Of a stretch of DNA of 64,000 bases, positions 3 to 47,673 are shown in pieces. A model generated the notes under the pieces. The model had not been told where the DNA came from. It worked only from the letters and a program-made list of their open reading frames with translations, and searched no databases. This DNA is from Heteronotia binoei (Eukaryota): assembly GCF_032191835.1 (NCBI RefSeq), contig NC_083237.1:39990001-40054000 (forward strand), given 5' to 3'. Both the position numbers and the translations under genes were made by a program. Each line of letters starts with the position of its first letter. Within the stretch, counting starts at the first letter, position 1.

Positions 3-2768
3 CATCCAGTTTGTCTGTTGGTAGTTGACATAGCACCGGAGGTATTGTTCTAGAAGCCCGTTCACCCTCTCCGTCTGGCCGTCTGTTTGTGGGTGATAGG
101 CGGAACTGAGCCCCTGCTCTATCCCTGCCAGCTTGCAGAACTCCCGCCAGAAGTTGGCAAAGAACTGTGGCCCGCGGTCACCAATTACCTTATCTGCGAA
201 GGAGTGGAGGCGGACCACGTGGGTGAAGAATAGATAGGCCAGTTTCTTGGCCGTGGGTAATTGCTTGCACGGGATGAAGTGGGCCTGTTTCGAGAACGTG
301 TCCACCACTACCAGGATTACTGTCTTCCCCTGGGAGGGGGGCAGTTCTACTATGAAGTCCATAGACACCACTGCCCATGGTCTGGTTGCCGTTGGCAGTG
401 GGATTAGATGGCCAGGTGGCTTCCCCCCCCCCCTCCTCTTGGTCATGATGCATGTCGGACAGGAGCTCACAAATTCCGACACATCCTTTTTCAGGTGGGG
501 CCACAAAAATTGCCGGGTGACCAGGTTGAGCGTTTTTACATAGCCGAAGTGCCCTGCCAGGCAGCTGGAATGGCATTGCGTTAGGACCTCGCCACGTAGG
601 GTTTTTGGCACATAGATTTTCCTGTTGTAACACCAGAGCCCTCCTTCTCCCTTTTCCACGCCTTCAGGCCGTTCCCCTCCCTCCGCCTCTGTTTCAGCCA
701 TGAAGTGCTCCCTTTCCTTGAGCTCTGGGTTTCCTGTCTTTTTCCCCGACCGGGTGGTGACCCCACCTGCCACTTGGGTGGGGGGAATGAGGGAATCTAT
801 CACTTCCTCCCTCTGGCTGTCATGTTGGGGCATGCGCGAGAGCGCATCGGCCAAGAAGTTCTTTGTCCCAGGGATGCGCTTCAGCACAAAGTCGAATTTG
901 GCAAAAAACCCCGCCCACCGTATTTGTTCGGCGGTCAGTTTACGGCGGCCGGTTAGCGCCTCGAGGTTTTTGTGATCTGTCCAAATCTCAAAGGGGACCC
1001 GGGCTCCTTCCAGCCACGACTGCCAGGTTTTTAGGGTGAACATGACTGCGAAGGCTTCTTTGTCCCATACTGACCAATTCCGCTGTCCATTTGAGAATTT
1101 ATGGGAGATATAGGCGCAGGGTCTAAGTCCCCCCTCGTCGTCCCGCTGCATCAATATTGCCCCCACAGCAACGTCGGAAATGTCGCATTGGACCACGAAT
1201 GGTTTTAGCTCGTTTGGGTGGGCTAACACTGGCTCACTCGTAAACAGTCGTTTCAGCTCATCAAACGCGCTCTGGCACTCTGGTGACCAAGCGAGGCATG
1301 CCCCTCGCTTTTTCGCTTCCTCCCCCTCCCCCTTGGTCTTGAGGAGCTCAGTGAAAGGTAACATGACACGGGCGAACCCTTTGATGAACCCGCGGTAGAA
1401 CTTTGCGAATCCGAGGAAAGATTGTAGCTGCCGTCGGGTTCGGGGCGGTTCCCAATCTAGCACTGCCTGGATTTTCGCGGGGTCCATCGCTAGCCCTTCC
1501 CCCGACACTCTGAAACCCAGGTAGTCTAGCTCCGTCTTGTGGAATTCACACTTGGTCAATTTGGCATACAGTTTGTTTTGATATAAGGTGGTTAACACTC
1601 TCCTGACTAGTGGCACATGTGAGTCAAGGTCCTTAGAGTAAATAATGATGTCATCCAGGTACACCACCACCCCCTTATATAAATATTCTCTTAGCACATC
1701 ATTGATAAAGTTCATGAACACTCCCGGTGCCCCCTGCAACCCGAACGGCATCACCAAATATTCAAACTGTCCCATCGGCGTGTTGAACGCCGTTTTGCAC
1801 TTGTCCCCCTCCTTGATCCGCACCCTAAAGTACGCATCGCGGAGGTCAAGTTTGGTAAATATTTTGCCCTCCGCCACCGTGCTTAGCAAGTCCTTTATCA
1901 GCGGGATCGGGTAAGCATTAGACATGGAAATCCCGTTTATCCCGCGAAAATCTGTGCAAAGTCTCAAACTGCCGTCCTTGCGAAACAGGACGGGGGCGGC
2001 ATGGGGAGCGGTGGCAGGGCGGATGAATCCCCTCTTCAGGTTTTTGTCTATAAACTTTTTCAACTCCGCTTTCTCCGCCCAGCCCATCGAGTAGAGCTTA
2101 GCTTTTGGTAGCTCTTGCCCCGGTATTAGCTCGATGGTGCAGTCAGTTGGGCGATGGGGGGGTAGTTCGTCCGCCTCTTATTCGCTAAATGCCCTTTTCA
2201 AGTCCTGGTATTCCTTGGGGATCGATTTCACCTCCTCTATGGTCAGGCATAGCCGCTCGTTCTGCGGCGGCGCTTTGGGCCCCCATTCCTTCCGCCAATG
2301 GTGATGCTCACACCGCCAGTCTGGGAAACACACGATCTGTGCTTCCAATCGTATGTCTGGCTGGTGTCTCGCTAGCCAGCCCGCCCCCACCATCGCATAG
2401 AACGAGGACGAGGGGGCTATTACAAACGTCTCGATCCCCCAGTGGTCCTCGGTCCCTACTGGTACTGCTTGAGTCTCTTCCGTGCAGGGCTCCCCTCTCA
2501 TTACTGACCCGTCCATTTGCTCAAACTGGATGGGGTGGGGTAGAGGGGACCGGGTTAGCCCAAGCGCCTCTACCAGGTGGGGGGTGATGATGTCTCTAGT
2601 GCACCCTGAGTCTATTAGGGCCCGGGCGTGCATGAAGCGTTTTAAATTGGGGTTCAATAAAGTCACGGCCATAAATAACAGATCCCCGGTTACTCTCACC
2701 GTCATTGGTGCCGGCGCTTCCCGGACCTGCTTTGCGGCACCGATTAAAGCAGGTCGCTGTCGTTTCCC
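3..2768 (-). pseudogene. pol: Gypsy pol (PR-RT-RH-IN), a single frame with one premature stop at 2178-2180
   Basis: FSE*EADELPPHRP; the same frame still reads GLLEQYLRC at 59-33, and the ORF track lists no closed ORF in this frame below 2178, so it stays open to the window edge. Confidence 0.9.
2724..2768 (-). promoter_or_regulatory. -1 programmed ribosomal frameshift signal (gag-pol)
   Basis: Slippery heptamer G GGA AAC (2768-2762), 6-nt spacer, perfect 10-bp stem GACCTGCTTT/AAAGCAGGTC; gag reads GGA AAC, pol reads GGG AAA. Confidence 0.8.
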
Positions 2769-3884
2769 GTTGACTCTGGGTCCCACGATTCCTCGCTCGA
2801 TTCTGCGATAGTTATAATTTCCTCGTCAATCACCATAGATGTGGCGACGGCACCCCAACTGGGCTCCTTGGCTCACCCCCCCTTTCTTCGGGGTGCCCGC
2901 AGGGGGCTTCGGTGGTGGGGAAGTGAGCGACGGCTTCTCGGGGCAGTTGGCGGCCAGGTGCCCCGGGTCTCCACATCGGAAGCATCTTCTGCCGGCCCCC
3001 ACCGGGGTGGACGTTGAGGGGGGTTTCTTTCCCTCCGGCTTGGGCGCTGGGGTGCTCAGCCTTCCTCCCCTTTTCCCCAGTTGTTGCTGACGGCGCATCC
3101 CCACATGTTGCAGGTTCGTCTCCACTTCCCCTGCGAGTTGGATCCAGCCCACTAGGGTGTCAGGCCTTCCCTGGTGGTAGCATCTGTCGAGGATGTTCGC
3201 GTTCAGGCCATTCTTGAACGCGGTGTACTTCATCATCTCGCTCGAGCCTCGCACCGCCGCACAGTGGGTCATGAACTCGGTGGCGTACTCTCGGGTGGTG
3301 CGGTTCCACTGTTCGATTATCTGGAGGACTTCGATGGCTTTCTCCTCCCTCAGGGGGTCCCTGTACTGCTGCAGCATAGCCTGGAGGAATTTGGCTACCG
3401 TCGCTAGCTCCGGCTTCTGTCCGGTGTACAGCCCCACGTACCATTTTCTCGCGGCCCCTTTGAGCTTAGATGCGATGTGGTCTACTCGGCTGGCCTCCGT
3501 CGGGTAGCTCACGCCCCAGTGGGTGAAGAAATTGTTGGACTGGATGGTGAAGTACTCCACTTCGTCTCCATCCCTATCGAACGAGATCTGCAGTTCGAGG
3601 ACCCTTCCTCCGACGCCCGCCCCTGGGGCGGCCGGTGCCGCGGGCGGCGGCAGTCCGGCCGGAGGAGAAAGGGCCGGGGCCGCGGGGCCCGGCACTGGCA
3701 GCGGAGCCAGCGGGGCGGCGGGTATCGGCGGCGGGACCGGCGGAGCGGCGGGACCGGGCATCTGCGGCCAGACTGGGCCCCCCCATCAGCGGGAGGGCCC
3801 GCAGGCTGGCCCGGCGCCCCGTCAACTGGTGCGGGCGGTAGCACGGGTCCTCTCCCCGGGGGACCTCTCGTCCACTGCGTCCAT
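2744..3884 (-). pseudogene. gag: Gypsy gag with frameshifts (near the 5' end and at the G7 run 2876-2882)
   Basis: ORF 2826-3761 has a retrotransposon-gag core and zinc knuckle; the native acidic tail IDEEIITIAESSEESWDPESTGNDSDLL* is in the +1 frame, stop at 2744-2746; likely start ATG 3884. Confidence 0.8.
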
Positions 3885-4002: not shown

Positions 4003-4431
4003 TGTCAGAACTGGAAGAACTTCAATCGAGGCCCAAGACTTCGTTACAAAAGTATAGGCATTTATTGAGAACTACAATGCTGAAGGTACAGAATAACACT
4101 GATAACGAAGCTAGAATTGGTTACATTTTATGCAGTTGTAGCAGCAACAATAAAATGATCTTTCACACGGTCAGAGACAACTGTCTGTTTCTCAGGGTCT
4201 GTTATCAGCAAGGGAAGATGGAGCCCTGCTGAGCTGTCCTGGCCGGCTGGTTTCAAAGGCCACCTGCAGATGTTGACCAGAGGCTATCTGCCACCCTTCA
4301 GTGATCACAGGCTGTTTGGAATGCATGCTATTTTGGTTAGTGGCCTGGCATAAAGCACATTGGGTTAGTATCTGGTTACAATATGGAGTCAGTTAGGTTA
4401 ACAGCATACAGGAAAGTTACAAGTTCTGACA
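4003..4431 (-). repeat. 5' LTR of the Gypsy element (429 bp)
   Basis: Perfect 9-bp terminal inverted repeat TGTCAGAAC...GTTCTGACA; on the minus strand a TATA-like CATAAAA (4132-4126), Inr TCAGT (4102-4098) and AATAAA (4066-4061). Confidence 0.9.
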
Positions 4432-4699
4432 ATGTTGGGGAGCGATCTGATAGCGGCCATCTGGTTCAAAACACATCAGCAACAACTTTTACTGGTGCCC
4501 GCGCAGCTGCAGGGCAGTTGGTTCAACCACGGCTGCTTTGCTGGGAGTTCACCTCCCAAGGCTCGTGCGCCAGGAAGGCCTGTAAGTATAAGCACGAGTG
4601 CCCGATTTGTGGAGGCCCTCACTCCTTCACGGCCTGTACCAGATCCAAACAAAGGTGGCCTAATAAGCGGACAGGCGGCGGGCCTGGGCAGCACCCTGC

Positions 4700-6272
4700 A
4701 AAAGGGTCCCAGCCCCATTCGGCTGAGGGTTCTTAGGCAGCTGTTAGATGTTTACCCTCATTTGGATGAAGTGCGCTACCTGTTCGAGGGGTTCTCATTT
4801 GGATTCAGAATCCCGTATCAAGGCCCCCAGACCCCGTTCTTTTCCGCTAATTTGCGTTCAGTTAAGGGTTTAGAACCCATTGTGAGGGAGAAGATCAGAA
4901 AAGAGTGTGTTGAAGGTAGAGTGTTAGGCCCGTTTAAGTCCCCCCCTCTACCGAACTTGCGGGTGTCCCCTTTGGGAGTGGTGCCTAAGAAGGCAGCAGG
5001 TGAATATCGGTTAATTCACCATCTTTCTTATCCCATGGGTCGATATGTAAATGATGCAATCCTCTCTGAGCTTTGTTCGGTAAAATATACTTCTTTCGAC
5101 CCAGCAGTTCAGATCGGCGGTGTGGGTTGGGTGCCAAGTTGGCAAAGTGCGATATAAAATCGGCTTTTTGCCTTCTGCCAGTTCACCCTGGGGACTTAGA
5201 ATTGTTAGGTTTTGCGTTCGAAGGGAGTTACTATGTTGATAGGGCACTGCCTATGGGGTGTTCAGTTTCCTGCGCTGCGTTCGAGCGTTTTAGTACTTTC
5301 CTGGAATGGGCATTACGTTTTAGAACGGGGATACAGGACACAGCTCATTATTTAGATGTTTTCCTTTTTGTGGGCCCCGTGGGTTCCGGGCAGTGCCTTT
5401 CGTTGTTAACAGCTTTCGTGGATTTAACCAAGGAATTGGGAGTACCGTTGGCTGCTGAAAAAACTGAGGGCCCAGCTACGGTTCTTACCTTTTTGGGCAT
5501 CAAACTTGATACGGTGTGTCAGTTTTCAAGGCTGCCCGAAGACAAGCGAGTGAGCCTTTTAGCCCAGGTCCGATCGGTGTTGGTTAAGCGTAAGGTCACC
5601 TTATTGGAGCTGCAGCAGCTTGTGGTTCATTTGAACTTCGCTTGTAAGGTCGTGGCTCCGGGCAGGGCCTTCTTGAGGCAATTCTGTGACGGAATGGTCA
5701 ACCTGCGTTTGCCGCATCATTTTACCCGGGTTACAAGGGAGATGCAAGTGGACCTTACGGTCTGGGAAACATTCTTGAAGGACTTCCATGGCATTTCTTT
5801 TTGGCGTGGGGATATGCAGCTCGAAGCCGAGTTACAGATAGTTTCTGATGCCACTGGTTCCATCAGTTTCAGGGTTTATTTTCGAGAGCACTGGTGTGCT
5901 GAGTAATGGCCACGGGATTGGTTGGGTTCCGAGTTGTGCCAGAACTTGATGTTCCTGGAATTTTTTCCGATTGTTGTTGCTGTTTTTCTTTGGGGCAAGG
6001 CCCTGGCCAATTGCACAGTGCACTTCTGGTGCGACAACATGGCTGTTGTTCATGTTGTTAACAGTCTGACATCTAAGTCCCCCACAGTCATGCGGCTCGT
6101 CAGGGCGTTTACTTTACGCTGTTTGAAATTGAACATCTTGTTTTTGGCTAAGCACGTTCCTGGCATTTGTAACGGGGTGGCGGACGCTCTGTCTCGCCAA
6201 CAGATGGACCGTTTCCATCAATTAGCCCCGGGGGCCGACCTGTTGCCCGAGTGCATCCCAGTGGAATTATAA
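4700..6272 (+). pseudogene. Ngaro-1 RT/RNase H, disrupted
   Basis: KGPSPIRL, LRVSPLGVVPKK, ALPMGCS, YLDV (YLDD mutated), WCDNMAVV, NGVADALSR; frameshift near 5110 and stop at 5904-5906. Confidence 0.9.
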
Positions 6273-7195
6273 CAGATTGGAGGGAAGAAGTGAGCTGGGC
6301 GATCCATCTTGCCATAGCGTCCAGCACTAAAAGGTTGTATGACCGGGCGGCTAGCCAGTTTTTGGTTTTCAGAGAGGGGGCAGGATTACCTGATGTGTGG
6401 CCCATCCCTGTCGAGCAGTTGTTGCAATTTTGTGTGCATCAGAAGCAGCGGGGTCTTTCAGTTAAATCTATTAGAGGCCAGATGGTGGCACTGGCTTTTA
6501 TGAGTAAGGCCAGGGGGCATGGCGATGCGACTAAGGATTTTCGCATACAAAAAATGCTGGAAGGTTGGTCCCGTGAATCGGGACCCCGGGTTGATGGTAG
6601 GCAGCCTATCTCACCATCTATTCTCAGGGGGCTTCCTGCCTCTTGGGCCCTTGTTTGCGGGTCTGCTTATGAGGAGGCACTCTTCCATGGTGCCGCATTG
6701 ACGGCCTTTTTTAGGGCCTTTAGAGTATCCGAGCTGGTATCGCTCTCCCACAACGATGTTTCTGCAAGGGCCCTGCAGTTTAGGGATGTTAGTTTATCCA
6801 GCAACCAGGTGGCGTTCAGAGTCCGCCATTCAAAGATGGACCAGAAGCAGCATGGCTGCACTGTGACGATTGGAACTTGCGCTGAGCGGAAGTTATGCCC
6901 AGTGGCTGCAATCAGGCATTACATTGAATGGCGTGGCATATCTGATGGCCCCTTTTTCCACCATGTCGACGAGGCCCCTTTGACGAAGTACCAATTTTGG
7001 ACTGTCACGAGTCGAGCCTTGCAACATTTGGGCCTCGGGGGTCGAAAATTTGGTACCCATTCCTTCAGAATCGGTGCAGCTTCCACAGCCGCATCGCTGG
7101 GCTATGGAGGAGAGGACATTCGTCGAGTGGGGCGTTGGAAGTCGGGGGCTTATTCAGCCATTGCGGTCTTAAGGATGGTCGTCTTACCCCTATAA
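6251..7195 (+). pseudogene. Ngaro-1 tyrosine recombinase
   Basis: AFRVSEL, HSKMDQ, THSFRIG, GRWKS motifs; the C-terminal catalytic Tyr region is degenerate. Confidence 0.85.
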
Positions 7196-7265
7196 CCCCG
7201 GGGAACGTTTGCTGCGGGTTATGTTATATTACTAGTTCAACAGTTCTAATAGTTTTTTCTTCTAG

Positions 7266-7842
7266 GTGCTGTGGCTGGTGGTGAGAGGAAAAGGATCCTT
7301 ATATGCGGCCACAGCATTGTTTTTTGGGCGGCACACCAGGCCCAACGGATGCCGATCGGTTCCCAGCTGGGCCTGAGCGACAGAGCTGTAATTACATGGC
7401 ATGGCCGCCGTGGTATGAGGTGGCCCGGGCTTCTGCCTCTGTTGTTTAGGGACCTGGGTGGCCCTCCTCCGCAGATTCTGGTAATACATCTGGGAGAGAA
7501 CGACTTGGGTCTGATGAAGGGGAAGGCCCTTTCGATTCAGGCCGAGTCGGATCTGGCTTTGATCGGCAAAAGGTGGCCAGGCGCCTTATCTTGTGGTCGG
7601 CCATGTTGCCATGCTATGTTTGGCGGACAGCTTGGGACCTAGCTGGTTTGGAGCACGCCAGAATAAAGGCCAACAGGGCCTTGCGCAAAGCCCTCTATGG
7701 CGGACTCGAGGGTTATGTGCCCCATCCTTTTATTCAATCTAGTATGCCGGAATTGTACAGAGAAGACGGGGTCCATCTGACAGAGAAGGGCAACGAGCTA
7801 TTCTTAGCCGACTTGCGGCAAGGGCTGGTTCGGGTTTTATAG
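7266..7842 (+). pseudogene. Ngaro-1 SGNH/GDSL hydrolase ORF (frameshift near 7590)
   Basis: Blocks CGHS, GRRG, HLGEND, DGVH; no ATG; preceded by an acceptor-like ctaat..ttttttcttctAG (7264-7265). Confidence 0.85.
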
Positions 7843-7883: not shown

Positions 7884-9044
7884 TGGCAGTTTGTGGTTGG
7901 AATTATGTTTTGGGGATTGGTGAGCTCCCGTAGCATTGTGCCATTTTGGTGCATGGCTTCCCTGGGGGACCGTTAAGCTGTACGGCCCAAGGTTGGCTCC
8001 AGGGAGTCTGTGGGATCCCGGCACGCGGAGAGTGTCCGCATCCCAGGCTGCACAGCTGTGGGGATGGCGGAGCTCAGGTGAGCGGTGATCATGTTGCCAG
8101 GCTGGCCGGGTCTGAGCCGTTGGGTCGGCTCATATTCGGGGCTCTGGGGATCGCCCAGTTTCAGGTCAAGGAGGTGGTTGACCCCTGGCTTGATCTGTCC
8201 CCATGTTTTGCCCTTGCCGTTAAGTTAATAAAGTGGCCCTTTAATCCAATCTGGTGTCTGTCACGTTATTCCGCCTGGGGGGGCAATTCGGCCCCCTTCC
8301 CAGCTGAGCAGTCCATCGACCGCTGATGGTGGTTGCCGTCCATTGCCTCCCCGCGTGGATTCGAGGCAATGGTTGTTCCCAAGGGGGAGGGGGTGAGGTG
8401 CGGCTTTAAGAGGCTGCCCCGCCCCCTGACACGCAGTTGAATTTAGCTCTCGTCCCACCCACCTGACCATCAAGCAGTACAGGCAGAGGCTGGTCGCCTG
8501 TTTCTAGGGGCCGGGTAGGAATTTTTCACCCCTGGACTGATTGGCCTTGTTCGGGGGTGTTTTTGCCTACCCTGTACTGCTGATGTTTGGTGCTAGCAAT
8601 TTGAATGGTGGTGCCGTTATATTGGTTGGTCACTGGCAGTTCATGGTTGGGATTATGTTTTGGGGATTGGTGAGCTCCCGTAGCATCGCGCCATTTTGTT
8701 GCATGGCTTCCCTGGGGGACCGTTAAGCTGTACGGCCCAAGGTTGGCTCCAGGGAGTCTGTGGGATCCTGGCACACGGAGAGTGTCTGCATCCCAGGCTG
8801 CACGGCTGTGGGGATGGTGGAGCTCAGGTGAGCGGTGATCATGTTGCCGGGCCGGACGGGTCTGAGCCGTTGGGTCGGCTCATACTCGGGGCTCTGGGGG
8901 CTTGCCCAGTTTCAGGTCAAGGAGGTGGTCGGTTGACCCCTGGCTTGATCTGTCCCCGTGTTTTGCCCTTGCCGTTAAGTTAATAAAGTGGCCCTTTAAT
9001 CCAATCCGGTGTCTGTCTCGTTATTCTGCCTGGGGGGGGGCAAT
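7884..9044 (+). repeat. Ngaro-1 terminal repeats: B1 7884-8284, A2 from 8285, B2 8634-9041
   Basis: B1 and B2 are ~400-bp direct repeats (about 20 or more differences by eye), each with AATAAA; A2 has TTTAAG and ACGCAGT. Confidence 0.9.
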
Positions 9045-10461
9045 GAATAGAGCATTAATAGAATGGATATTCAACAGTAAAAATTGCAGATTCCATAAGC
9101 AAAGAATATATAATCATAAATCAGAATTTGGATGGGGAATTCCGGACCTAAATATTTCAACTAAAACCATTTAGTTGAAGCCTTTCAACTAAAACCATTA
9201 TTAGAAATATGTGAGGAAAAGACTCAGAAGTGGGTCAACTTTGAGAATGAAATAAATAATAATATAGGTAGATCAGGCATTTTTTCTAAAGTTACGAATA
9301 AAGACTTACTATTAACAATAGGCCCTAGAAGAGCTTCATTAGAGGTTGGGAAGAAATGGCAGCCGCATTGGTTAGGAAGAGTTTCTAGATGGGCACCCCT
9401 GGAAACTGTTAGTGAGGAAGTGAAAGAAACTAATTGGTGGGAAAGGTTAAACCTCAAAGGTTATTGCAGAGTAGAAGACATGTTTCAAAGTGGAAATCTT
9501 AAACCCATACAGGAAATAACAGAAGAAATAGAAAAACAATATTGGTTAAAAGTAGCTGGGCTTTACAAGACAACAAAAAAAGATTAGTGAAAATGAAGTT
9601 TTTTGGGTAGACACGCCAATGGAAGTATTATACAAAGAAATGGCAAAGCAGAAAAGGGGCTTAGTAGGGAATATATATAGAATGATGATAGTAAATAAGG
9701 AAAAAATAGTAGAGTATTTACAGAGGAGATGGAGCCAGGAGGGCTGGTTATCAGAGAGGACGGTGGAAAAAAATTAAGAAAGGAATAGAAGAATTAAAAG
9801 TAACTAAATTTAAAGAACTTGAATATAAATTTCTTACAAAATGGTATAAGACTCCAGCACAATTAGCTAATATGATTCCAGGATTGAGTCCGCTATGCTG
9901 GCATTGTAAACTTTCTAAAGGGTGGTATGCTGATATGTGGTGGGAATGCCCGGAAGTAAAGACCTTTTGGAACAAAATTATCAAAATAATCAGAAAAGTA
10001 TGCAATATAACATTAACTATAGAGTTTAATCTTATGTTGGTAAGTACAATAGGTAGCCCGATAATAGACAGGAGTATGCAAAATTTAGTCAAGGCTATGG
10101 TATTGGCAGGTAAGGCAGTTGTTGCTTGGGGTTGGAAGGACAAAAGTAAATGGACAGTAGAAATCTGGCACAATTATTTGTTTGAATTTATACAGTAGAC
10201 ATCGTGGCGGTACTTAACAAGGTGACAACATGGGATGTGAAAACCAAGGAAATTACGACCAGATGGAAGACCAACCTAGAATGGACAGCGATAGAAGGAA
10301 GGATGGACATTCAGTGGAAGACTAAGACTTTGTGCCCACGGCTGGGGGGAAGAGACTAGGAGTTAAGGGTGGGTGGGGAGAGGGAGGAAGGGCGTATTGG
10401 AAATATAAATATTTCTTGTAATGGACTAAATAGAATAACAAATAAAGACTATTAAAAAAAA
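9045..10461 (+). mobile_element. L1-clade LINE, degenerate 3' part of ORF2 plus 3' UTR
   Basis: FGWGIPDL and the zf-RVT-like CWHC..MWWEC; G-rich 3' UTR, AATAAA 10441-10446, short poly(A) 10454-10461. Confidence 0.8.
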
Positions 10462-13020
10462 TAGCTGAACATGATACAGAGCAGCCCATTGGCAATGCTC
10501 TGTCCATGTAAAATTGGCCCTCAAAAGAAAAACCCAAAAGTTCAAAATCCACAGGATGCACTGGCAGAAGGCGAAATGCAGATTTAATATTGCACTTAAC
10601 CAACTCAGCACCCTCTCCGCAGCGTCTCACCACGGCTACGGCCTGGTCAAAACTAGTATACCTAATCGAGCATAAATGCTCAGAAATCCCATCATTAACG
10701 GACTTCCCTTTGGTGAAGGAAAGATGGTGAATCAAACACAATTCCCCAGGTGCCTTTTTAGGCACCACGCCCAAGGGGGAAACCCTAAGGTTATGCACAG
10801 GGGGATGGGGGAAAGGGCCCAAAATCCTGTCCTCAGCAAACTCCTTGGCAATCTTATATCCAACAACCTGCTCTGAACCCTTAACAGAACTAAGATTCCC
10901 AGACATAAAAGGGGCCCACGGCCCCTGAAAATGGATCCTAAAACCAAATAAAAAACCTTTTAGCAAGTAAACGCTGTCAGCCCTTTGTGGGTACCTAGAC
11001 AGCCAATACGCAAGCGGACCCACCTTTATCAGACTGGGCCCCTTTTCCAGCCTGATAGGTTCCTTCCCCCTTTCCTGGCTTCTTTTGATTTTTGCATCCC
11101 CGGGCTTTAGGGCAGTTATTGAAAGAGTGAGGCCCACCACACATGGGGCGTTCATGCTTTAACTGGCAAGCCTTTCTGCTACATACTCCCTGAGAACCAA
11201 ACTCCCAACAAATCAGGCGGGGTTGAACCGCCTGTCCCACAGAACTGTGGAAAGAGGCAGATGACGATGAGGAGTTCACACCTGACCTGGTCACCAAATG
11301 ACTGCTATCAGAGCAGTCACCTAAATTTGGCCGAGCCGGGGACATGACCTGCAGCCACAGCTGCTGATGAATGTGTTCCCATTGAAGGGGAGGATACAAG
11401 GCCACTCTCATCCTAAACTCCTCATCATTCTGCATCCAGGCAGGCCCGCTAAATGCCTTGTACCCTTTGTAAATTATGTCCATGTATGGGATAAGGGCAG
11501 CAGCCCTCCAAGGCTGAGCCTGAGCAATCACCCCAGAGTAGATAAAAAACCCAGGCAGCCAATTAGCCCAAGTCCACTCCACTTTGCGCTTCTTTCACTT
11601 TTCTTTTTCATCTAACTCCTCTTTGTCTTTTTTCTCCAACTCCTGAAAAAGGAGGGAGAAAATATCCATGTACTCACCCTTTAAGACTTTTTTCCCTAGC
11701 TGCAGGTAACAAATGGTCCCCCAAAGGCAACACTACATCCCCAAAGGGTAATGCAGTAAAAGGAACCATCCCATAAGGAAAAGGGGCACCCCAATTCCCC
11801 ATAAAAGAGCCTGCAACACCCTGCTGCCCAGCACCCAGCCAAGCTCCACTAGGGCCGCATTGACCAGTCAGCCAAGCCCAATTAGATAACGAGCCCGTAC
11901 CTAAAGGGGAAGCAAACCCTGTACTCACAGCAGGGATGCCCTGCCCGGCAGGCGCAGCAGAACCCCGAGGCCCCCACGGCCAAGCCAGCCCAGCATTCAC
12001 CTGTAAAATGTCCCCAGCCTTACCCACATATCCAGCAGGCACCAGCGTTGACCCAACTCCAGTAGCTCCTGATGATTACCCCGATGCTGTATCTGGACCT
12101 CCGAGACCCATGTCACTGCCCGCGATGCAAGCACCAGATCTGCCCTCAAGGATAGGCAACTTGGTTAACACATTCGCTTGGAGCCCCCTTTTAGAAGCCT
12201 TTACCCTCCCCCCCCCCTCAGAAGGAGAAATACCAGATACCCGCCTCTGCATAATGTTAACACTAACTGCCTCATCACCTTCATCATCAAATGATGACAA
12301 CGGGGGTGGAGGCCTCTTCGCAGGTGCCTTAGGGGCCTTTGGTGCCGGCTTTTTTCCTTTTGAGCTACCAGACCCTTTTCCACCTGACATCCTTATAAGC
12401 TAAAGACGACCCTCAAAATGGCCACCAAAAAAGAGCCTTCTAAAATGGCTGCCCACCCCTAAAGAAGAAAGGGATCTCAAAATGGCTGACAACCCACTCC
12501 AATAAGAGGGAAGCAAAATGGTTGACTCAGTCACCACTCTCCCCTAACTTCCACCGAGACACTGAGCCCAAAGCAAAAAACCCCTTCCCTGCCCAAGGAC
12601 GGAGAGGGTGAGCCACCCAGCCGAAGACAATAAATAATACTACCACCTTAATTGAAGTTCTCCAAAGGGAGAGGGCAAGCCACCCCATCAAAGTCAATAA
12701 AACAATACCGCCATCTTAAATGAAGTTCTCCAGAACAGTCACCGCAGACCCAACAACCATCGACGAGCCAAGGAGCCCCCAGCAACCACATGACAGGACC
12801 TTCAACTGCCAATGCGGCCCCCACCTTGCTGAAAGACATGCGGCTCGTGTCTCCCGTGGCCACGCCGACGCAGATGGAGAACGGGCCTCCTTCCTCACTT
12901 GAAACACACGCTCCCTGCCTGAGCCGAAAGCACGCTCCCTGCCCGAGCCAATCTTCCCGAGGACTGCAGCAGGGAGTGGAGGTCTGGCCATTACAATGGC
13001 CTGGCCCTGCCCCCTAAATT
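10462..13020 (-). mobile_element. Ngaro-type element, copy 2 (5' end, gag, RT N-half), interrupted by the L1
   Basis: gag ATG 12390 (MSGGKGSGSSKGKK), WPWG, VEWTWANWLPGF, CCCH/CCHC fingers, RT up to ALPMGCSVSCSA; begins with AAT at 13020-13018. Confidence 0.9.
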
Positions 13021-33313: not shown

Positions 33314-33420
33314 CAGGGGTGGGGAACCTGTTTTCTGCCAAGGGCCATATGGATATTTATAACATCATTTGTGGGCCATAAAAAATTATCAACTTAAAAA
33401 ACAGTGCTCTGCCAAGGGAG
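33314..33420 (+). mobile_element. hAT-like MITE that hosts Ngaro-3 (continues at about 38928-39000)
   Basis: Starts caggggtggggaacct; the halves rejoin as gccaagggag-aatg-attcaggcc. Confidence 0.55.
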
Positions 33421-36400
33421 AATGTCCGGCCCCTCCCAGCCAAGCCGGCTTGCCGGCGCTCAGGCTGGGGGCCGCCTTTGCCGCCCCGGAAGGAGGGAGG
33501 GGCAGCATCACCCCACATACGGGTGTTCGTTGCAGGCGCGGAGCCGGGGCTATATAAGCCCCGGCCCCCGCACCCTCCGCACGCAGTTCCTTTGGCTCTC
33601 TGGTGGAGAGCCGCGTGCTGGTCGGGCCGGTGTTCAGGCCTGCCGGGGAAAGGACTGTGTGGGCGCGTGTGGCTCCATAGCGCAAGCGGCGGCGAGATCG
33701 CGAGCAGCGGCTTTCCTGCGCCGGCGAGGCTGAGAAGACGCAATTCAAGTGGTTTGCACTTCGGGACAGCGAGCGGCCGGGAGGCTTGGGCGTAGCGCGC
33801 GCGCGGCTAGTGATATTTGGGCCCCGGGGGAAGCTACTGGGATCACCCTCGCAGGGGCGGGCAGAAGGCTGAGGACCCACGCGGCCGGCTGGTCGCGGGG
33901 GTGGGCGAGTTAAGGCTGCAGCTCATTGCCACCTGTGGGGCTTTTGTAGGGGCCTGAAACAGCGAAACGGGTACGTGGGATTTGTGGGAGGCGTGCTTTG
34001 GAGTGGCGACTTGGAGGGACCTTAGTTGGAGCAATAAGTCTCCCCCCCCTCCACCCCCCCCTCCTCCAGGCAGGCCGTCCTAGCCATCTTTAGGGCCCTA
34101 CCTTATCTGGGTAGCTGGTTGGGGATAGTGCTGAGGCTGGTTCTAGGCAGTCAGCCTCTCTCTTCCCCTGCACTTTTGGGCAAAGTGAGCTGGTGCTTCT
34201 TGGTTGACCCCCCCCCCCTCCTGCTTTTGCCCAGGCTACAGGGCTGGGACTGCGCGTTCTTAGGAGCGCTTCATTGGTGCACCCCATCCCCTCTCGGGTA
34301 GAAACATACACCCCAGGTTGGTGGGTGGTTCAGAAGGTTCCTCAGTGCCTGGTTTTATTATTCATTGCTGTCTGGTGACTTGTGCAGGATGGCTCCAAGC
34401 AAAGGCCAGGGCAAGTCGAAGGGTAAACAGCCCGCCCACCCCGTGGGCGTGGTCAGCAAGGTACTCCAGCTGAGGTGCCTGGCCAACGAGAGAGGGTGAG
34501 GCTCGCTATCATGAGCCAGTTGGATGCTTTAGAACAAGATAGAGTGTCTAGGGGCGCTCCCATTTGGGAGGGGCGTCGCCGTGCCTCCGTCCGGTCGGCG
34601 CGCCCGACTTTTGAGGCAGAAGTGCTTGCACGTCTATCTGCTTTGCAGGGTGGGCCACCTGAGCCTGATCCACCGGAGGTACCGGACCAGGAGGAAGATC
34701 CAGAGGAGGGCCCATCAGGTACGGCGTTCAGCAGTGGCGCAGCCGGAGGTAGCGGGCAGCAGCCCTCTGGTGGCGCTGACGTTTTTCCCGGTGATGGTGG
34801 TAAGCCCCCTCTTCTGCCAATTCAAGGGTGGCCATGGGGTCCCTTTCAACTTCCTCCCCCCCCGGCGGCCCCGAGTGGGGCGGCTTTGGGTATGGGGCAA
34901 CTGGGCGTGGTGGAGCAGCCGGGTCTTGGCCAGCCTTGGGCTTGGGGTTTTCATGTAACTAACCCACTCCCCTGCCCAGTCTTGTCCACTAGTGGCCAGT
35001 TGGCAGGTGCTGCGGCACCGCCCGCGGCCCCTTCAGCCCCGCCCGTATCGGGCATTTTGCCGTGGGGGGGTCAGCAGCTGGGGCATCAGAGTAGCGGGTG
35101 GTTTTACCCCCCCAACCCATATGCTAACATCCCCTTTCATATCCTCCCATACGGCGATACCTCTCTGCCGTTGGGAGATCATTTAACAGCGGCCACGCGC
35201 GAGAAAATCCTCCGTGGCGAGTACGTGGACGTTTTCGGTCTCCTGTTCAGAGAGCTCGAAAAGAAAAGTAAAGATGAGCTCGATGACAAGGAGAAGGAAA
35301 AGCTGAAACGTCGTAAGGTGGATAGGTCCTGAGCGAACTGGTTCCCTGGATTTTTGATTTACGCCGGAGTAATCGCGAGAGCGCAGCCGGCTCGGGCGGC
35401 GGCCCTTTTTCAGTATATAGATGTTGTTTATAGGGCGTATACGGACTTCGTGGGCGCAGCTTGGCTGCAGTACGACGAGGCTTTCCGTATGAGGGCCGCC
35501 GTCAATCCAGGGATGCCGTGGGATCAAATAAATCAGCAGCTGTGGCTACAGCTGATGTCCCCGGCAAAACCAAACGCCGGAGACAGGTCTGACAGTGGCC
35601 ATCTGGTGCAGGGGTTGCAGCAACAACAGTGCTCTACATGGGCCTGCGATACCTCGGGCCAGTCAGTCCAGTCCCGGCCGTTATGTTGGGAATTCGCATC
35701 TAAGGGTGCGTGCCCCAGGAAACCTTGTAAGTTCCGGCATGAGTGCCCGCTCTGCAGTGGGGCCCACGCACTTTCGGCCTGTAGCAGATCTACATCCAGA
35801 CCGGGCGGTAAGACCCCCGGGGGCAGCGGGGGCGGGCAGCAGCCACCTGGTAAAGGGGCCTACCCCCATCCGCCCGATGGCACTCCGCCATCTGGCACAT
35901 GAGCAGGTGGCGGTCTGCGGCCGGCCGAACTTATATGACCTCCAGCGGCATCTGGATCGAGGCGGCGTGGCGGTGCTGATGTTGTTAGATCTGTCGGCCG
36001 CGTTCGATACGGTCGACCATCAGCTACTGGCCCGCCGGCTCGCCGACACAGGGATAAGGGGGTTAGCTTTACAGTGGCTTTCCTCCTTCCTTGATGGACG
36101 GGGACAAAGGGTGGCAATTGGGGGGGAGCTGTCCCGGAGGCACCCCCTAGTGTGTGGGGTGCCACAAGGGGCAGTTCTCTCTCCGATGTTATTTAACATC
36201 TACATGCGCCCCCTTGCCCAGATTGCCCGGAGGTTTGGGCTTGGGTGCCATCAATATGCAGATGACACCCAGCTCTATCTATTAATGGACGGCCGACCTG
36301 ACTCCGTCCCAGAAAGCCTGGACCTAGCATTGCAAGCCGTGGCAGGTTGGCTCAGACTGAGCGGGCTGAAGTTGAATCCAACGAAGACAGAGGTCCTTTG

Positions 36401-37324
36401 CTTGGGTCGCGGTGCCCTGGGAAGGGAAATCCCCTTGCCGATTTTTGACGGTGTGCTGCTGAAAGCGGCACATAGGGTCAAGAGCTTGGGGGTTCTTCTG
36501 GAGCCTTCACTATCAATGGAGGCACAGATAGCGGCCGCTGCCAAGTCTGCGTTCTTTCATCTCCGACGGGCGAAGCAGTTGGCCCCCTTCCTAGAGCGCC
36601 GTGACCTAGCAACGGTGATCCATGCTACGGTCACCTCGAGACTGGATTACTGCAATGCTCTCTACATGGGGCTGCCCCTGTGCCGAACTCGGCGGCTGCA
36701 GCTGGTGCAGAACGCGGCGGCTAGGCTGTTGTTGGGACTCCCAAGATGGGAGCACATACAGCCGGGGCTGCGCGAACTGCACTGGCTGCCAGTGGGATAC
36801 CGAGTTCGTTACAAGGTGCTGGTTATCACCTTTAAAGCCCTATATGGCCGAGGACCTGCCTACCTGAAGGACCATCTCTCCCCATATGAGCCCCAAAGAG
36901 CATTGCGGTCGGCTGGAAAAAACCAGCTGACCGTCCCTGGGCCAAGGGAGGCCAGATTGAAGGCCACCCGAGATAGGGCCTTCTCTATTGCTGCTCCACT
37001 GCAGTGGAATCAACTCCCGGTAGAGGTGCGGGCCCTGCGGAGTTTGGAACAGTTCCGCAGGGCCTGTAAGACCCACCTCTATAAACTAGCCTTCAACCAA
37101 TGATAAACTAGGAAATGCCTCTAAAAAATTGCTCTTGGTTACTGAATTTTATGGAATTATTGAAGATCGAATGTTTTAGCACCATTGTAATTTGTAAATT
37201 TTAACTTGTAATTTGTCTTAACTTGGATTTTATTTGCAATTTATGTAATCTGATGTATAATGTATTTTATGTTGTAAGCCGCCCTGAGCCTGCTTTGGCG
37301 GGGAGGGCGGGATAGAAATTAAAA

Positions 37325-37403
<79 letters not shown>

Positions 37404-38927
37404 TGCCCTCTGGTTACCTACTGGCGGGTAGGGGGCTTTTTTGGGGTTGTATTGTTGTTTATGCTGACTGCTGTTTGTCTTTTCAGATGCTGGGCTCGTG
37501 GTGAGTGACGCGGTTCTCATCTGCGGGCACAGCTCGGTTTCCAGTTTTCCCATTTTGCCACACGGTCTCCGGGGGGCACCCAGCCTGGCCTCAGTGCGGG
37601 GCTACCGCTGGCCTGGGATCCCGCCCCTGCTGTTCTAGTAGGCTGACTGGTGTCGGCCAGATGGTGTTTCCGAGTTGGGCAACCGGGCCTTTTAGTGGCT
37701 AGGGCAGGGGGTTTCGGTTGGCTCTGGGCCACCCGGTGGGGCGCTAATGCCTAAGCAGAGGCTTGGCATTGGCGGTGGCTGGAGGAGGTTTGGCCACAGG
37801 GTTTTCCAGGGGAGCACCTATGGCCTAGCACCATTGGTGCGGTGGTCTGCAGGAACCGTAGATGGGCTACACGGCTCAGTGCGGGGAATGCAGATCACAG
37901 GGAGCCTCACCTGGTTGGATCTTTCCATGGGGATCGATGCCAGCCCAGATGGTGATGGCTGTAGGCCTGGCCGCTCAGCTACAACCCGAATACGGCGGGC
38001 TTGTGCTGGGGGCAGGGTGGCTCGCCCTTTGGACAAGGCGGGGTCCAGGTGTTGACCCCAGGGCTTGTCTGGTTCAGGTTTCACCCCCTGCCAGTTACAG
38101 TGTTATGTGTTTAATAAAGCAGCCCGGTTTTAAACCCAATACCTGTGTCTGCCTCTTCATTCCGACTGGGGGGGCAATGTCTGGCCCCTCCCAGCCAAGC
38201 CGGCTTGCCGGCGCTCAGGCTGGGGGCCGCCTTTGCCGCCCCGGAAGGAGGGAGGGGCAGCATCACCCCACATACGGGTGTTCGTTGCAGGCGCGGAGCC
38301 GGGGCTATATAAGCCCCGGCCCCCGCACCCTCCGCACGCAGTTCCTTTGGCTCTCTGCCCGCCCACCCGTCCCTTTCGGTAGTACAGGCGTATGCCGGTC
38401 GCCTTATTGGGGGCCAGGTAGGAATTTTTTCATCTCCACACAATTGGCCATTGTGGGGGTGTTTTTTGCCTACCTTGTACTGCCGGTTAGTTTAGTTTTG
38501 TTATTGGTAATGGTTAAGGTCGCAGGCTGGAGGAGGTTTGGCCACAGGGTTTTCCAGGGGAGCACCTATGGCCTAGCACCATTGGTGCGGTGGTCTGCAG
38601 GAACCGTAGATGGGCTACACGGCTCAGTGCGGGGAATGCAGATCACAGGGAGCCTCACCTGGTTGGATCTTTCCATGGGGATCGATGCCAGCCCAGATGG
38701 TGATGGCTGTAGGCCTGGCCGCTCAGCTACAACCTGAATACGGCGGGCTTGTGCTGGGGGCAGGGTGGCTCGCCCTTTGGACAAGGCGGGGTCCAGGTGT
38801 TGACCCCAGGGCTTGTCTGGTTCAGGTTTCACCCCCTGCCAGTTACAGTGTTATGTGTTTAATAAAGCGGCCCGGTTTTAAACCCAATACCTGTTTCTGC
38901 CTCTTCATTCCGACTGGGGGGGCAATG
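33421..38927 (+). mobile_element. Ngaro-type element, copy 3: both termini complete, internally deleted, non-autonomous
   Basis: A1 33421-33601 = A2 38176-38356 (1 difference seen); B1 37777-38175 = B2 38525-38923 (3 differences seen); gag 34389-35902; RT/RH/YR deleted except GRWRSAAGRTY (35903-35934); SGNH remnant 37487-37700. Confidence 0.93.
35937..37397 (+). mobile_element. 5'-truncated L2-clade LINE inserted in the YR remnant of Ngaro-3
   Basis: LLDLSAAFD, VPQGAVLSP, YADDTQLY, LNPTKTE; open to stop 37103; (TTA)n tail from 37326; TSD-like ttatat. Confidence 0.92.
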
Positions 38928-43256: not shown

Positions 43257-45825
43257 TGCTGGAGGACTGTAATACAGCCACCGTCCTGAAAGAATGTTAA
43301 TGAGTGGGAGGTTCCACTTTCAAAGATTTATACAAGAACAATCCCTTGTTTAACATATTTACATAATAACTCTTGATAACACTTCTGTGGTGAATGCATT
43401 TTTTTTTTGCATGCTCTTTTCCCCCTTGGCTCTGTCTCCATATACAGTATATATATGGGAGAGAATCCGGCCCCGCCCAGGCCGTGCCGCAAAGCCGGCT
43501 GCGGCCACGGGGCCGCGCTTTGCAGCCTCGAAGGAGGAAAGGCTGCTTCCCGGGCATCCGGGACCTTGGCGTGGGTGGAGGGCTGAGGCTATAAGTAGCC
43601 TCGGCCCCGCCTCTCCCCACGCAGTCCCAGGAGTTCAAACAGGAGTGATCAGAGGCACGTCTGCTGCCTCGATCGCTTTGGGACTGCGTCATCTCGGGCC
43701 TTCGGCGGCTTGGAGCTCCGTGTGCTGCCGGGGGGCTGTCTGTTGGCCCCAGGTGCCTGCCACCCTCGGCGGAAGAGCGGAGGCGGCGGCGGCGGTGTTC
43801 TTGGGCTGCTGGTCATCAGCGCGATCCAGGAGTGATCGCGTGGGAGGCTCTTCCTCGGCGTGCTGGCGAGGGTCCGTCCAGCGGGCTCCAGCGGTTGTTG
43901 CTGGGTTTGTTGAGGGTGAAGCAGGGCGCTAGGCGCTGCCGTCCACCCCCTCCCCTTGTTGTGGGTATTTGTTCCTTTTGCCCCTGGTGGTGCCTAAGGG
44001 CCTGGAGGCCCATTAAATCGGTAGTGCTGTGCCTGGGTGGTCTCGTTGGTAGGGCATTTTGTTGGGCTGGGGCTGGGGAGGAAGGGCAGGTGGAGTTTGG
44101 CTTGGGGGTGAGGGCCTATTAGGGGTGTGCTACAGCATACGCTGGGGCAACCCCCCTTTTTTCACCTTGTGCCAATTCATCCCCCCCATCCTCTTTTGGA
44201 GGCCTTAGTGACACTCCCACCCCCTCCCTGCTCAACTTCCGTTGGGCAATTGTTGGTTTTCCCGGGAGTGTGGATTTTTTGGCATGGCCCCCAAGAAAGG
44301 ACAGGGCCCTTCAAAGGGCAAACAGCCAGCTAAGGCTGTGCCCAAAAGAAGGAATCAGGACCCCCCAGGGGATGAACTGGATAGTACGGTGGTAAGACAG
44401 GCGATTCTGGATAGGATTGGGGTAATGGAAAGAGCGCAGGGGGCATCGGGGTCACAGGCGGTGTGGCAGGTGGCGCCACAGTGCTACTGGGCGATTGGGG
44501 ACAATTACTTTCGAAAGGGAGTTGCTGTCCAGGCTTTCTGTGCTGCAGGAAAACATGGCATCTACGTCAAGGGAGGACCGTGGTCAGGTGGTTGGTGCGG
44601 CCAAGGAAGCAGTGTAGCGTGAAGGGGACAGCGACCAGGATGATGTTGAAGAACTGCACCAGGCGGCGCAACCAGTGGCAGTGGCAGTGACGCCCTCATC
44701 GGATGAAGGTAGGGCAGCATTTACCCCCCCCCCCCAACAGGCAAACTGGCCATGGGGGGTGTGGGGCCCAGGGGCAACACAGCTGCCCAGGGATTCTGGC
44801 CAGGTGTCCACACCAGTGGAGACTGGGCAGTGGCCGCCCCCAGCCCAACCAGGACCATCTTGGGCATCGAGTGGGCTACCTCCAGGCCGGCCTCAATGTG
44901 TGCAGGTGGGGTGGGGTCAAGTGCCCCCATCCATGGGGGGCGATTGCTGCCCATGGGCCCCCTGAGATAGCCGGAACAGCTGGAGTTCTCCCATGGGGAA
45001 GCCAAATGCCATTGGCCCAACCATTCGGGTGGCCTGCTGTGAGTTGTTATCCGTGGGGTTATACGCCTAACCCCTATGGGTCTGTTCCCTTGTTATCCAT
45101 CCCGTTTGGAGACCCAACCATGCCTTTGGGGGACCACCTCACTCCTGCGACAAGGGAAAAGATCCTGAGGGGGGAATATGTGGATGTATTTAGTCTCCTC
45201 TACAGAGAGCTGGAGAAGAAAAGTAAAGATGAATTGGACAAAAAGGAAAAGCTTAGGCGCCGGAAGGTGGATAGGACCTGGGCTAACTGGCTTCCAGGTT
45301 TCCTTATATACACGGGGGTCATAGCTAGGGCGCAGCCTAATAGGGCTGCCCCCTTGTTTCAATACTGTGACATAATCTATAGGGTGTATACCGATTTCCC
45401 TGGTGTGGCCTGGTTACAGTATGATGAGACCTTCCGCATGAGGGCGGCGATTAACCCTTTGCTTCCATGGGACCAAATCAACCAACAGTTGTGGTTACAG
45501 CTAATGGCCCCAGCTAAGCCTAACCTGGGTGACAGGGCAGATAGTGGGCATTTGGTCCACAGGCAAACAGGTTTCTCAACAGCCCGCTCCACGGCGGGTC
45601 AGGGAATATGTTCCAGGAAATCATGCAAATTCAGACATGAATGCCCATTATGCGGTGGTCCCCACGCATTTTTGGCATGTAGTAAATCAAAGCTGAAGGG
45701 CAGACCCAAGCGCCCTGGAGGGGGCGGCAATTCACAGCCTTTGGGTAAAGGGTCCCACCCCCATTCGGCTGAGGGTTCTTGAGCGCTTCCTGGAGAATTA
45801 CCCTAGGGTAGCTGATAAAGTTTAT

Positions 45826-47022
45826 TTGTTAGAGGGATTTTCATTAGGTTTTCGGATTCCATATATGGGGCCAAGGGCTCCATCTATGGCATCCAATTTA
45901 CGTTCCACTGTTGGCATGGAGGAGGTTGTTAGGTCCAAAATCGCAAAGGAATGCGCGGAGGGGAGAATGTTAAGTCCTTTTAAGGCTCCGCCAGTGCCTT
46001 GTTTGAAAGTCTCCCCTTTAGGTGTTGTACCCAAGAAAGCCGTTGGTGAATTTAGGCTTATTCACCACCTGTCATATCCCTCCAGTGGTTCAGTGAATGA
46101 TGGCATTCCCAACCACCTTTGTTCCGTTCGTTATACATCGTTTGACCAGGCAGTCAAGGTTACGAGGAGGGCTTACGATCGCGCAGCCACACAGTTCCAG
46201 GTATTCCGTGACTCCGCGGGGCTGGGTGAGGTATGGCCCATCCCGGTGGCCCCTTTAATGCAATTTTGTGTGCTGCAGAAATCTAAGGGTTTGTCAGTTA
46301 AATACATTCGTGGCCAGTTGGCTGCGTTGGCGTTCATTAGTTGGGCACAAGGTTTTCCCGCCTCTGGGGAGGACTTCCAGGTTAAAAAGATGCTTGAGGG
46401 TTGGTCCAGAGAGCGCGCGTTGATGGCGGACCCAAGACAGCTTATTTCCCCTTCTATCCTTCATGGACTGGGCGGAGTTTGGCCCGCCATTTGTAGTTCT
46501 GATTATGAGGCCATTCTATTTCACGCAGCGGCACTCACGGCCTTTTTCGGTGCCCTGTGGGTCAGCGAGCTGGTCCAGTCGTCGCGTAATGACCCGGGTG
46601 ACAACGCATTGCAGAAAGGCGATGTGTCATTCAAAGGGAAAGAGGTCTTGCTTCTGGTACGCCGGTCTAAAACGGACCAACTAAGTAAGGGCACTACAAT
46701 TAGGCTGGGCCCTTGTGCTGAGCAAGGGCTATGCCCAGTGCAAGCCTTATCTGATTCTGTCAAGGTCCAGGGGGACACGCAAGGACCTTTTTTCCGGCAT
46801 GAGGGTGGTTCCCCCCTCACAAAATACCAGTTTTGGACAGTGACATCTCGAGCACTTGACAAGTTGGGTTTGGGCCAATTCAAATTCGGGACTCATTCCT
46901 TCAGGATTGGGGCTGCAGCGGCGGCAGCGGCCATGGGTTATCCTGGACCGGCCATCCAACGCATTGGACGATGGAGGTCTGTGGCTTATCGGACTTATGT
47001 GCGTCCGCTTTTGTTTCCCTAA
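45826..47022 (+). pseudogene. In-frame fusion of the RT N-terminus to the tyrosine recombinase
   Basis: ...YTSFDQAVKV|TRRAYDRAA... junction near 46161; YR has SKTDQ, THSFRIG, GRWRS, YRTY, but catalytic Arg is Trp (ALWVSEL). Confidence 0.85.
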
Positions 47023-47072
47023 GGGGGGGGGGTTCTTGTTGTTCGGAGTTTAACTGTGTTTTCTTGTTTCAG

Positions 47073-47673
47073 GTGCTGTGGCTCATCATGGGAGGCTGAG
47101 GATCCTCGTATGCGGGCACAGCATGATTTTTTGGGTGGCCCACTTTGCCAGAAGATCATCGGTTGGGTCTCAACTGGGGCTGAGCGAGTGGGCCGAGGTC
47201 GAATGGTTGGGGCAACGAGGGCTCAGGTGGCCTGGGCTGTTGCCATTGTTGTTTGGGAGGAGGGCCTGTCCCATGCCCGATATACTGGTCATTCACCTGG
47301 GTGGGAATGACCTGGGCCTGTTGAAGGGGAAGGCCCTCTCCTTGCAGGCAATCACGGACCTGAGGGTCATCGTGAGAAGGTGGCCCGGGGTCAGGATCAT
47401 TTGGTCCGCTATTTTGCCAAGGAGAGTCTGGCGGGCCGCTTGTAATCCGGCTGGGATTGAGCGGGCCAGAAGGAAGGCAAACCGGGCCCTGTGGTTGGCC
47501 CTGGAGGGGGGCTGGGTACCTTCCTCCCCCACCCTTGTATTAGGGTGGATAAGTTAGAGCTTTACCAGCCAGATGGAGTCCATCTGTCCGACATGGGAAA
47601 TCGGGCCTTTTTGTTTGACTTGCGGCAAGGTCTTCGGGAGGCTCTGGGCCTCCCGGGGGTCGCGAATGCCTAA
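47073..47673 (+). pseudogene. Ngaro-4 SGNH hydrolase ORF (frameshift near 47530)
   Basis: CGHS, GQRG, HLGGND, DGVH; acceptor-like ttaac..ttttcttgtttcAG (47071-47072). Confidence 0.88.

Follow-up and report, generated by a model that had tools for sequence, protein, structure and literature searches.

The window, the whole 64,000-nucleotide stretch of DNA that we analyzed, contains four decayed copies of a tyrosine recombinase (YR) retrotransposon with a Ngaro-type layout, including split direct repeats (A1...B1-A2-B2) that in copy 3 are 99.5% (A) and 99.3% (B) identical (Table 1). Split direct repeats are also present, as in copy 3, at the related loci L084, L090, and L092. The parts of the element are ordered A1-gag-RT/RH-YR-SGNH-B1-A2-B2, and ORF maps of full copies place gag, reverse transcriptase (RT)/RNase H, and YR in overlapping frames, without a DDE integrase. 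Pfam searches matched RVT_1 and Phage_integrase, with scores below the cut-off in the decayed window copies. A methyltransferase domain is absent, as the RT/RH frame stops shortly past the RNase H motif and the SGNH hydrolase frame then follows YR. Judged by its repeat layout, domain order, and missing methyltransferase, the element is a Ngaro element (order DIRS); PAT elements also have split repeats, but a methylase is present in them according to the pertinent passages of PMC7192593. The named database proteins nearest to those of the window are gecko proteins. The family is very large, with 9,710 first-look candidates found in genome G000 by a copy-4 hydrolase query, and many of the 150 of these matches that were scored have an open frame of about 206 codons.

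Copy 3 (33419-38927) belongs to a young nonautonomous family (L103-L109) that has a 509-codon gag, both splice sites described below, and the hydrolase, lacks RT and YR, and has an intron of 1.3 to 1.8 kb; copy 3 carries a LINE-like insertion in addition. Also in the window, a Ty3/gypsy-type element (3-3785, minus strand), whose frames encode protease, RT, RNase H, and integrase, abuts copy 1, and four open frames that by eye are olfactory-receptor-like, about 83 to 85% identical, lie on the minus strand at 14317-15324, 26609-27685, 39575-40543, and 58501-59529.

Table 1. Parts of the four Ngaro copies in the 64,000-nt window, with predicted splice sites
Copy	Feature	Position	Strand	Remarks
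1	gag 3' part and RT/RNase H	4365..6290	+	5' end including donor lost
1	Candidate second acceptor (CAG|AT) for YR, inside RNase H 3' end	6185..6203	+	
1	YR frame, downstream of candidate second acceptor	6204..7192	+	
1	Branch motif, pyrimidine tract, hydrolase 3' splice site	7246..7265	+	ctaat 7246-7250, AG 7264-7265
1	SGNH hydrolase exon	7266..7842	+	First 2 nt = split codon; frameshift near 7585
1	Repeats	7884..9038	+	B1 7884-8283, A2 ~8290-8580, B2 8634-9038
2	gag and part of RT, without YR or SGNH	10421..12400	-	
2	Donor G|gtaagg	First intron base 12023	-	
3	A1 repeat	33419..33618	+	TATA-like GGCTATATAAG at 33548
3	gag N-terminal coding exon	34389..34799	+	ATG 34389; frameshift near exon start
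3	5' splice site GTG|gtaagc	34797..34805	+	First intron base 34800; phase 1 in gag frame
3	Insertion with non-Ngaro, LINE-like reverse transcriptase, inside intron	35890..37405	+	
3	Branch motif, tract, 3' splice site	37464..37486	+	ctgac ~37464-37468, AG 37485-37486
3	SGNH exon, decayed, internally deleted	37487..37776	+	
3	Repeats	37777..38927	+	B1 37777-38179, A2 38176-38357, B2 38525-38927
4	gag N-terminal coding exon, frameshifted	44284..44708	+	
4	5' splice site AAG|gtaggg	44706..44714	+	First intron base 44709; phase 1 in local gag frame
4	RT 5' part fused to YR 3' part	45505..47019	+	Internal deletion near 46165; YR acceptor lost
4	Branch motif, tract, 3' splice site	47050..47072	+	ttaac 47050-47054, AG 47071-47072
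4	SGNH hydrolase exon	47073..47673	+	Frameshift near 47515

The expression of downstream, ATG-less overlapping ORFs in YR retrotransposons is not addressed in the literature that we examined. A sequence-only reading of the window had proposed that the hydrolase ORF sits behind a conserved, phase-locked 3' splice site and is expressed from a spliced, env-like mRNA. We found the 3' splice sites of copies 1, 3, and 4 where that reading had placed them (7265, 37486, and 47072), each with 2 nt between the AG and the CGHS frame and with no ATG between the acceptor and the catalytic Ser. Two of its claims need qualification. The S, G, N, and DxxH catalytic blocks are all present in copies 1 and 4, but in both they are split over two frames by frameshifts (Table 1), and although the phase does match in all three copies, copy 3 keeps it only via compensating small deletions. 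In that copy, the AG lies 38 nt from the block-I Gly codon where its relatives have 41, and there are two gaps in its alignment, one of 1 nt and one of 2 nt, so that the phase is preserved by accident.

We then compared this acceptor among many copies. Of 122 records, 112 yielded a total of 113 block-I matches (the other 10 were unparsed), and after 4 intronless copies were set aside, 109 intron-bearing copies remained, consisting of window copies 1 and 4 and loci of G000 with duplicates removed. All 109 have a YAG exactly 41 or 47 nt 5' of the block-I Gly codon, which chance does not explain, and 92 have a YTRAY branch motif. When the best pyrimidine tract was picked unguided, the same acceptor phase was recovered in 104 of 113 cases, and the nine exceptions were the 4 intronless copies and 5 copies in which an AG upstream of the branch point had been chosen. 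The 109 cases are not independent, however: a few queries supplied the copies as their top matches, and at 70% gag identity these group into about six families (lowest pair, 46%), which are the effective sample. Synonymous sites are saturated in 21 of 36 family pairs, and we therefore consider the conservation of the acceptor across these families to be old. The spacer from the YR stop to the acceptor varies from 42 to 96 nt, with one outlier.

Distant homologues from metagenomes extend this comparison. Among 29 loci, block I was located in 20 and 9 were unparsed; leaving L158 and L169 apart, a qualifying YAG (the nearest with at least 8 of 14 pyrimidines, a rule set after viewing these data) was found in 17 of 18 copies, in the same phase in 17 of 17. 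YR lies upstream on the contig in 11 of the 17 phase-matching copies, which include two pairs of near-duplicates, and L150 and L151 resemble fish-type proteins. In L158 and L169, a basic N-terminal frame runs directly into the hydrolase, and the match to the relatives L163-L165 starts at the ttcag of those relatives. Thus, the phase, which could have proved random in other families, was found to be fixed across families and in distant hosts.

The phase of the hydrolase acceptor calls for a phase-1 donor. We found exactly one phase-1 G|GTA[AG]G within gag nt 340 to 460 in 52 of 52 intact gag frames (104 records), at gag codon ~122 to 141, and just 15 other occurrences of the motif in 67,302 nt. 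This site encodes Gly-Lys or Gly-Arg (G|GTAAG or G|GTAGG) inside an otherwise variable gag linker, and in 42 of 42 full gags it falls in a single alignment column or the adjacent one. The donor codon is GGT in 52 of 52 frames versus 27% elsewhere, and the other invariant Gly columns of gag all use 2 to 4 codons (19 of 19). As the GGT count follows from the motif, the independent points are the presence, uniqueness, position, and phase of the donor, which is conserved with matching phase in all six families. Read from the sequence, the predicted intron would be of the U2 type, with GT..AG ends, a branch motif, a pyrimidine tract, and a frame that is kept across the join.

Four loci of G000 from three families (L084, L083, L064, and L116) lack exactly the GT..AG segment, that is, the 3' part of gag, RT/RNase H, and YR. 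Their junctions are base-exact relative to intron-bearing relatives, with exon 1 stopping at gtaagc or gtaagt and exon 2 starting after ttcag or tttag, and the open frames of L084 and L083 are 339 and 340 codons long. L084 is collinear with its parent L104 (99.0% and 99.5% identity on the two sides of the junction), and its repeats are 99.5% (A) and 100% (B) identical; this collinearity and the near-identity of the repeats are what a copy made recently by the element's own replication should show. L064 and L116 are each nearer to intron-bearing copies than to one another, and so they likely arose in separate events. At L083, a poly(A) tail would have pointed to copying by LINEs, but we found none, the copy stopping at the end of the B repeat. 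L083 has A1 and a single B repeat, as if B1-A2-B2 had collapsed by recombination. The intronless copies prove that spliced RNA existed, although not that the protein is made or needed. They would be spliced RNAs that the element's own reverse transcription returned to DNA.

Taken with the donor, these exact intronless copies support the proposal that a coding exon farther upstream is spliced to the hydrolase, and we can now identify that exon as the first ~122 to 141 codons of gag. We consider it very probable that a single transcript is spliced from one gag 5' splice site to the phase-matched hydrolase 3' splice site.

Three other explanations have to be weighed. The hydrolase might instead be translated from unspliced RNA, by read-through or frameshifting from YR or by reinitiation at an ATG of its own. 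Overlapping ORFs throughout the element, as the available text of the Xenopus Ngaro paper (10.1101/2021.08.05.455354) describes them, would suit such a route, and an upstream in-frame ATG is present in 39 of 109 copies; however, these ATGs are sporadic, lying at 18 different distances, and the other 70 copies have none. Read-through fares no better, since the stretch from the YR end motif to the acceptor is free of stops in just 2 of 84 copies, the YR and SGNH frames stand in random relation to each other (32/30/22 of 84), and a stop lies within 20 codons of the block-I Gly in 41 of 109 copies. L091 does have a 560-aa frame from YR into SGNH, but its YR tail is itself shifted out of frame. The other long open frames that we considered as YR-SGNH fusions were rejected as well, with L092-L094 having a stop between the frames and L123 and L124 being open on the 3' side or insertion-bearing. 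Translation from unspliced RNA also leaves the donor and the precise intronless copies unexplained. This explanation, which the sequence-only reading had itself listed among the outcomes fatal to its proposal, is already largely refuted, and we regard it as very improbable.

Equally improbable, in our judgment, is that the acceptor is real but mainly captures host transcripts or a noncoding 5' leader, with Gag-N fusions as a by-product. Gene models in which the hydrolase exon is spliced into the host genes DUSP12 (P0052) and TSG101 (P0070) speak for this explanation, and copy 3 has an acceptor-like tgtgcAG directly before its gag ATG (within ctgac..ttgtgcAG, 34370-34391, absent from the other family checked). 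Yet with a noncoding leader the catalytic Ser would have no ATG upstream of it, all six families keep the donor in matching phase, and the gag donor was used by all four intronless copies in G000. Least probable of all is that the intronless copies are DNA deletions or RT template switches at microhomology with accidental splice-like motifs since, despite a 3-nt overlap (G|GT) at the L084 junction and the internal deletions common in the family (L103-L109 and window copy 4), the overlap is only 1 nt in L064 and L116, other deletions end at unrelated places, and the same GT and AG recur in four events of three families and in two of a distant host.

Proteins already in databases also speak for splicing from gag to the hydrolase. 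Two segments of L063 together encode the RefSeq model P0030 with 100% identity, residues 1 to 126 at 1625-2002 and residues 127 to 277 from 5525 onward; the 3522 nt between them form a GT..AG intron containing the gag 3' part, RT/RNase H, and YR. The C terminus of the model is aberrant. The Gag start motif and SGNH occur together in 26 of the first 76 database proteins, and by source name the Gag-N/SGNH fusions, which are automated gene models, come from Eublepharis, Rhineura, Elgaria, two Anolis, Pogona, Hemicordylus, and Gekko. The Anolis fusion P0027 diverges from the full Anolis Gag P0166 exactly at Gly-Lys. A Gag-N profile search of representatives yielded 102 matches, with SGNH in 6, YR similarity in 4, a full Gag in 3, and RT in none; a "longer" protein search with this profile, itself crowded out, yielded 2. 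Through splicing from gag, dozens of "uncharacterized" reptile gene models are explained as transposon products. In one poorly suited RNA run (metatranscriptome contigs; 5% of words, mostly <90% identical), the alignment to L041 covers the intron, and no link from donor to acceptor was seen among the 15 joints listed of 25.

The joined product would be a protein of ~335 residues, with a basic, helical Gag N terminus followed by an SGNH esterase domain. We modeled the fusion P0003 with AlphaFold from an alignment of 12 sequences (mean pLDDT, 70). The model shows a basic disordered start, helices at residues 37 to 54 and 73 to 92 with moderate confidence (pLDDT about 60 to 70), a disordered linker, and a confident SGNH domain. 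Its top Foldseek matches are PAF-acetylhydrolase and GDSL esterases (E about 1e-6), and most open Ngaro copies share the S, G, N, and D-x-x-H blocks of GDSL/SGNH hydrolases of the PAF-acetylhydrolase Ib type, to which the putative Ngaro hydrolase is 13 to 20% identical. Across 93 open SGNH frames, found with a search pattern that includes the Ser of block I, the Gly is present in 83, the Asn in 87, and DxxH in 88. For exon 2, dS was measurable in 15 of 36 family pairs, and in these dN/dS is 0.07 to 0.24; by this measure of sequence divergence the SGNH exon is under purifying selection.

Among solved structures, the fusion profile matches the esterase of ZfL2-1 ORF1p best (PDB 4C1B; E 1.4e-4). 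In ORF1p of ZfL2-type LINEs, a basic motif, a coiled coil, and a variable linker precede an esterase that binds liposomes, as related in the pertinent sections of PMC3905857. The parts of the Ngaro fusion (basic motif, helices, variable linker, and SGNH domain) thus follow one another as in ZfL2-1 ORF1p, but the LINE protein is encoded by one contiguous ORF1 while the Ngaro fusion would be spliced together from Gag, and a coiled coil is described for the LINE protein whereas the model of the fusion shows two predicted helices. We see in the Ngaro fusion a convergence on the basic-helix-linker-esterase design of LINE ORF1p.

The likening of the hydrolase to retroviral env thus holds for the route of expression and fails for the protein, a basic Gag N terminus with two helices, a linker, and an SGNH fold. 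By inspection, no signal peptide or membrane anchor is evident in the fusion protein, and the surface and transmembrane subunits of a retroviral env are not found in the fusion model. The env gene of retroviruses and errantiviruses and the pol gene of foamy viruses are expressed from spliced subgenomic RNA, with the unspliced RNA serving as the genome. The Ngaro plan is alike in that a 3' gene would be expressed from a spliced subgenomic RNA and the unspliced RNA would be the genome, here serving probably also as the message for Gag (and RT). Avian retrovirus env retains a few gag codons; unlike it, the Ngaro fusion keeps ~130, and its product is not an envelope glycoprotein. A further difference from retroviral env is that the Ngaro donor probably serves the integrating enzyme too.

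The gene models P0075, P0076, and P0114 (cluster of 3) fuse the Gag-N exon to the recombinase. P0114 and the model P0014 have residues 1 to 138 in common and then continue into YR and SGNH, respectively, and P0045 uses both the YR and the SGNH acceptors. In G000, the point at which Gag-N meets YR is a CAG|AT within the RNase H motif LSR-x-Q-M, and a YAG is present there in 75 of 75 parsed copies with the phase kept in 73 (77 anchors, 101 records). Among 177 degenerate invariant columns of RT/RNase H, the only one restricted to a single codon is a Ser TCT (35 of 35 intact frames), and this column lies in the pyrimidine tract of the YR acceptor. In one family, a stop in frame precedes this site by two codons. 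The weak points of this site are its poor tract and its position within conserved RNase H codons; moreover, 54 of 77 copies have some in-frame ATG a short way upstream of the YR core, at different places, and no intronless Gag-N/YR copy was found among the 90 scored of 17,703 candidates. On balance, we think it probable that the gag donor is also joined to this weaker acceptor in the RNase H end, giving a Gag-N/recombinase of ~470 residues.

We also considered a third acceptor, for RT, and rejected it, as the in-phase YAGs differ between families and no phase-compatible site is conserved. In the overlap of gag with the RT frame (+1), ~70 codons ahead of the RT core, several gag codons at 435 to 440 and 490 to 506 (L041 numbering) do not vary at their synonymous positions. 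This pattern suggests that translation of the RT frame may start at the fixed gag codons, by a route other than the shared donor.

We conclude that the Ngaro element likely makes a Gag-esterase fusion protein by RNA splicing. Through the N-terminal helices that they share, the esterase and the recombinase might both be tethered to the particle formed by Gag, with the esterase acting on or binding lipids as in ZfL2-type LINE ORF1p; we put this forward tentatively, at slightly less than an even chance. We give even chances to a broader scheme, in which animal Ngaro elements would follow a plan like that of complex retroviruses, with one gag donor, two acceptors, and a Gag-N tag that loads YR and a lipid esterase into the particle. 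Under this scheme, the phase-1 esterase exon would be portable and, being found in lizards and in hosts of fish and invertebrate type, ancient, and squamates would have domesticated it one or more times, in the ESCRT-I gene TSG101, as an alternative last exon.

Ngaro elements with an SGNH ORF were already known, and it is the spliced expression plan that appears new within the literature searched. The Xenopus elements DIRS-53_XT and DIRS-54_XT share the A1-gag-RT/RH-YR-SGNH-B1-A2-B2 layout with the lizard element, and in the available text of 10.1101/2021.08.05.455354 their hydrolase, located after YR, has "no proven function" and is described as a fourth overlapping ORF, whereas here it is exon 2 of a Gag-N fusion. 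That text makes no mention of splicing or introns, and natural splicing of Ngaro ORFs is likewise absent from the available parts of PMC6681497, PMC8547959, PMC3783388, and PMC7192593. The gag-SGNH splice is thus undescribed in the literature searched. With the true protein products and exact junctions now given, Ngaro ORF expression and the function of the hydrolase become testable.

The thousands of Ngaro copies are potential exon traps in reptile genomes, and one is seemingly now part of TSG101. Locus L174 (G000:C21:152569810-152570391, minus strand) is a single Ngaro-type SGNH exon within that gene; the TSG101 exon 2.4 kb upstream of it ends in G|gtaag, and the exon that normally comes next lies downstream. 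It is 87 to 88% identical to its snake counterpart, and the next-best copies are 37 to 38% identical. Either of its tandem acceptors, TAG-CAG, keeps the phase, and the two correspond to snake isoforms that differ by the presence of one Ala. TSG101-SGNH proteins (P0070, P0071, and P0078-P0091) are modeled in boa, colubrids, elapids, and vipers, and the catalytic His of the exon is changed to Leu. No RT or YR relic was found in 59 kb, and no description of a TSG101-SGNH exon was found in the literature searched. From these comparisons, L174 is likely a domesticated alternative last exon of TSG101 that would give a UEV/pseudo-esterase protein, and a Ngaro-related exon seems to have become fixed in squamate TSG101. 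Two other host gene models contain Ngaro segments: the Gekko DUSP12 model (P0052) has a terminal YR-tail/SGNH piece, possibly through exon trapping by an intronic copy, and a gecko TRIM42 model (P0077) contains a Gag N-terminal segment (90% identity over half of the query).
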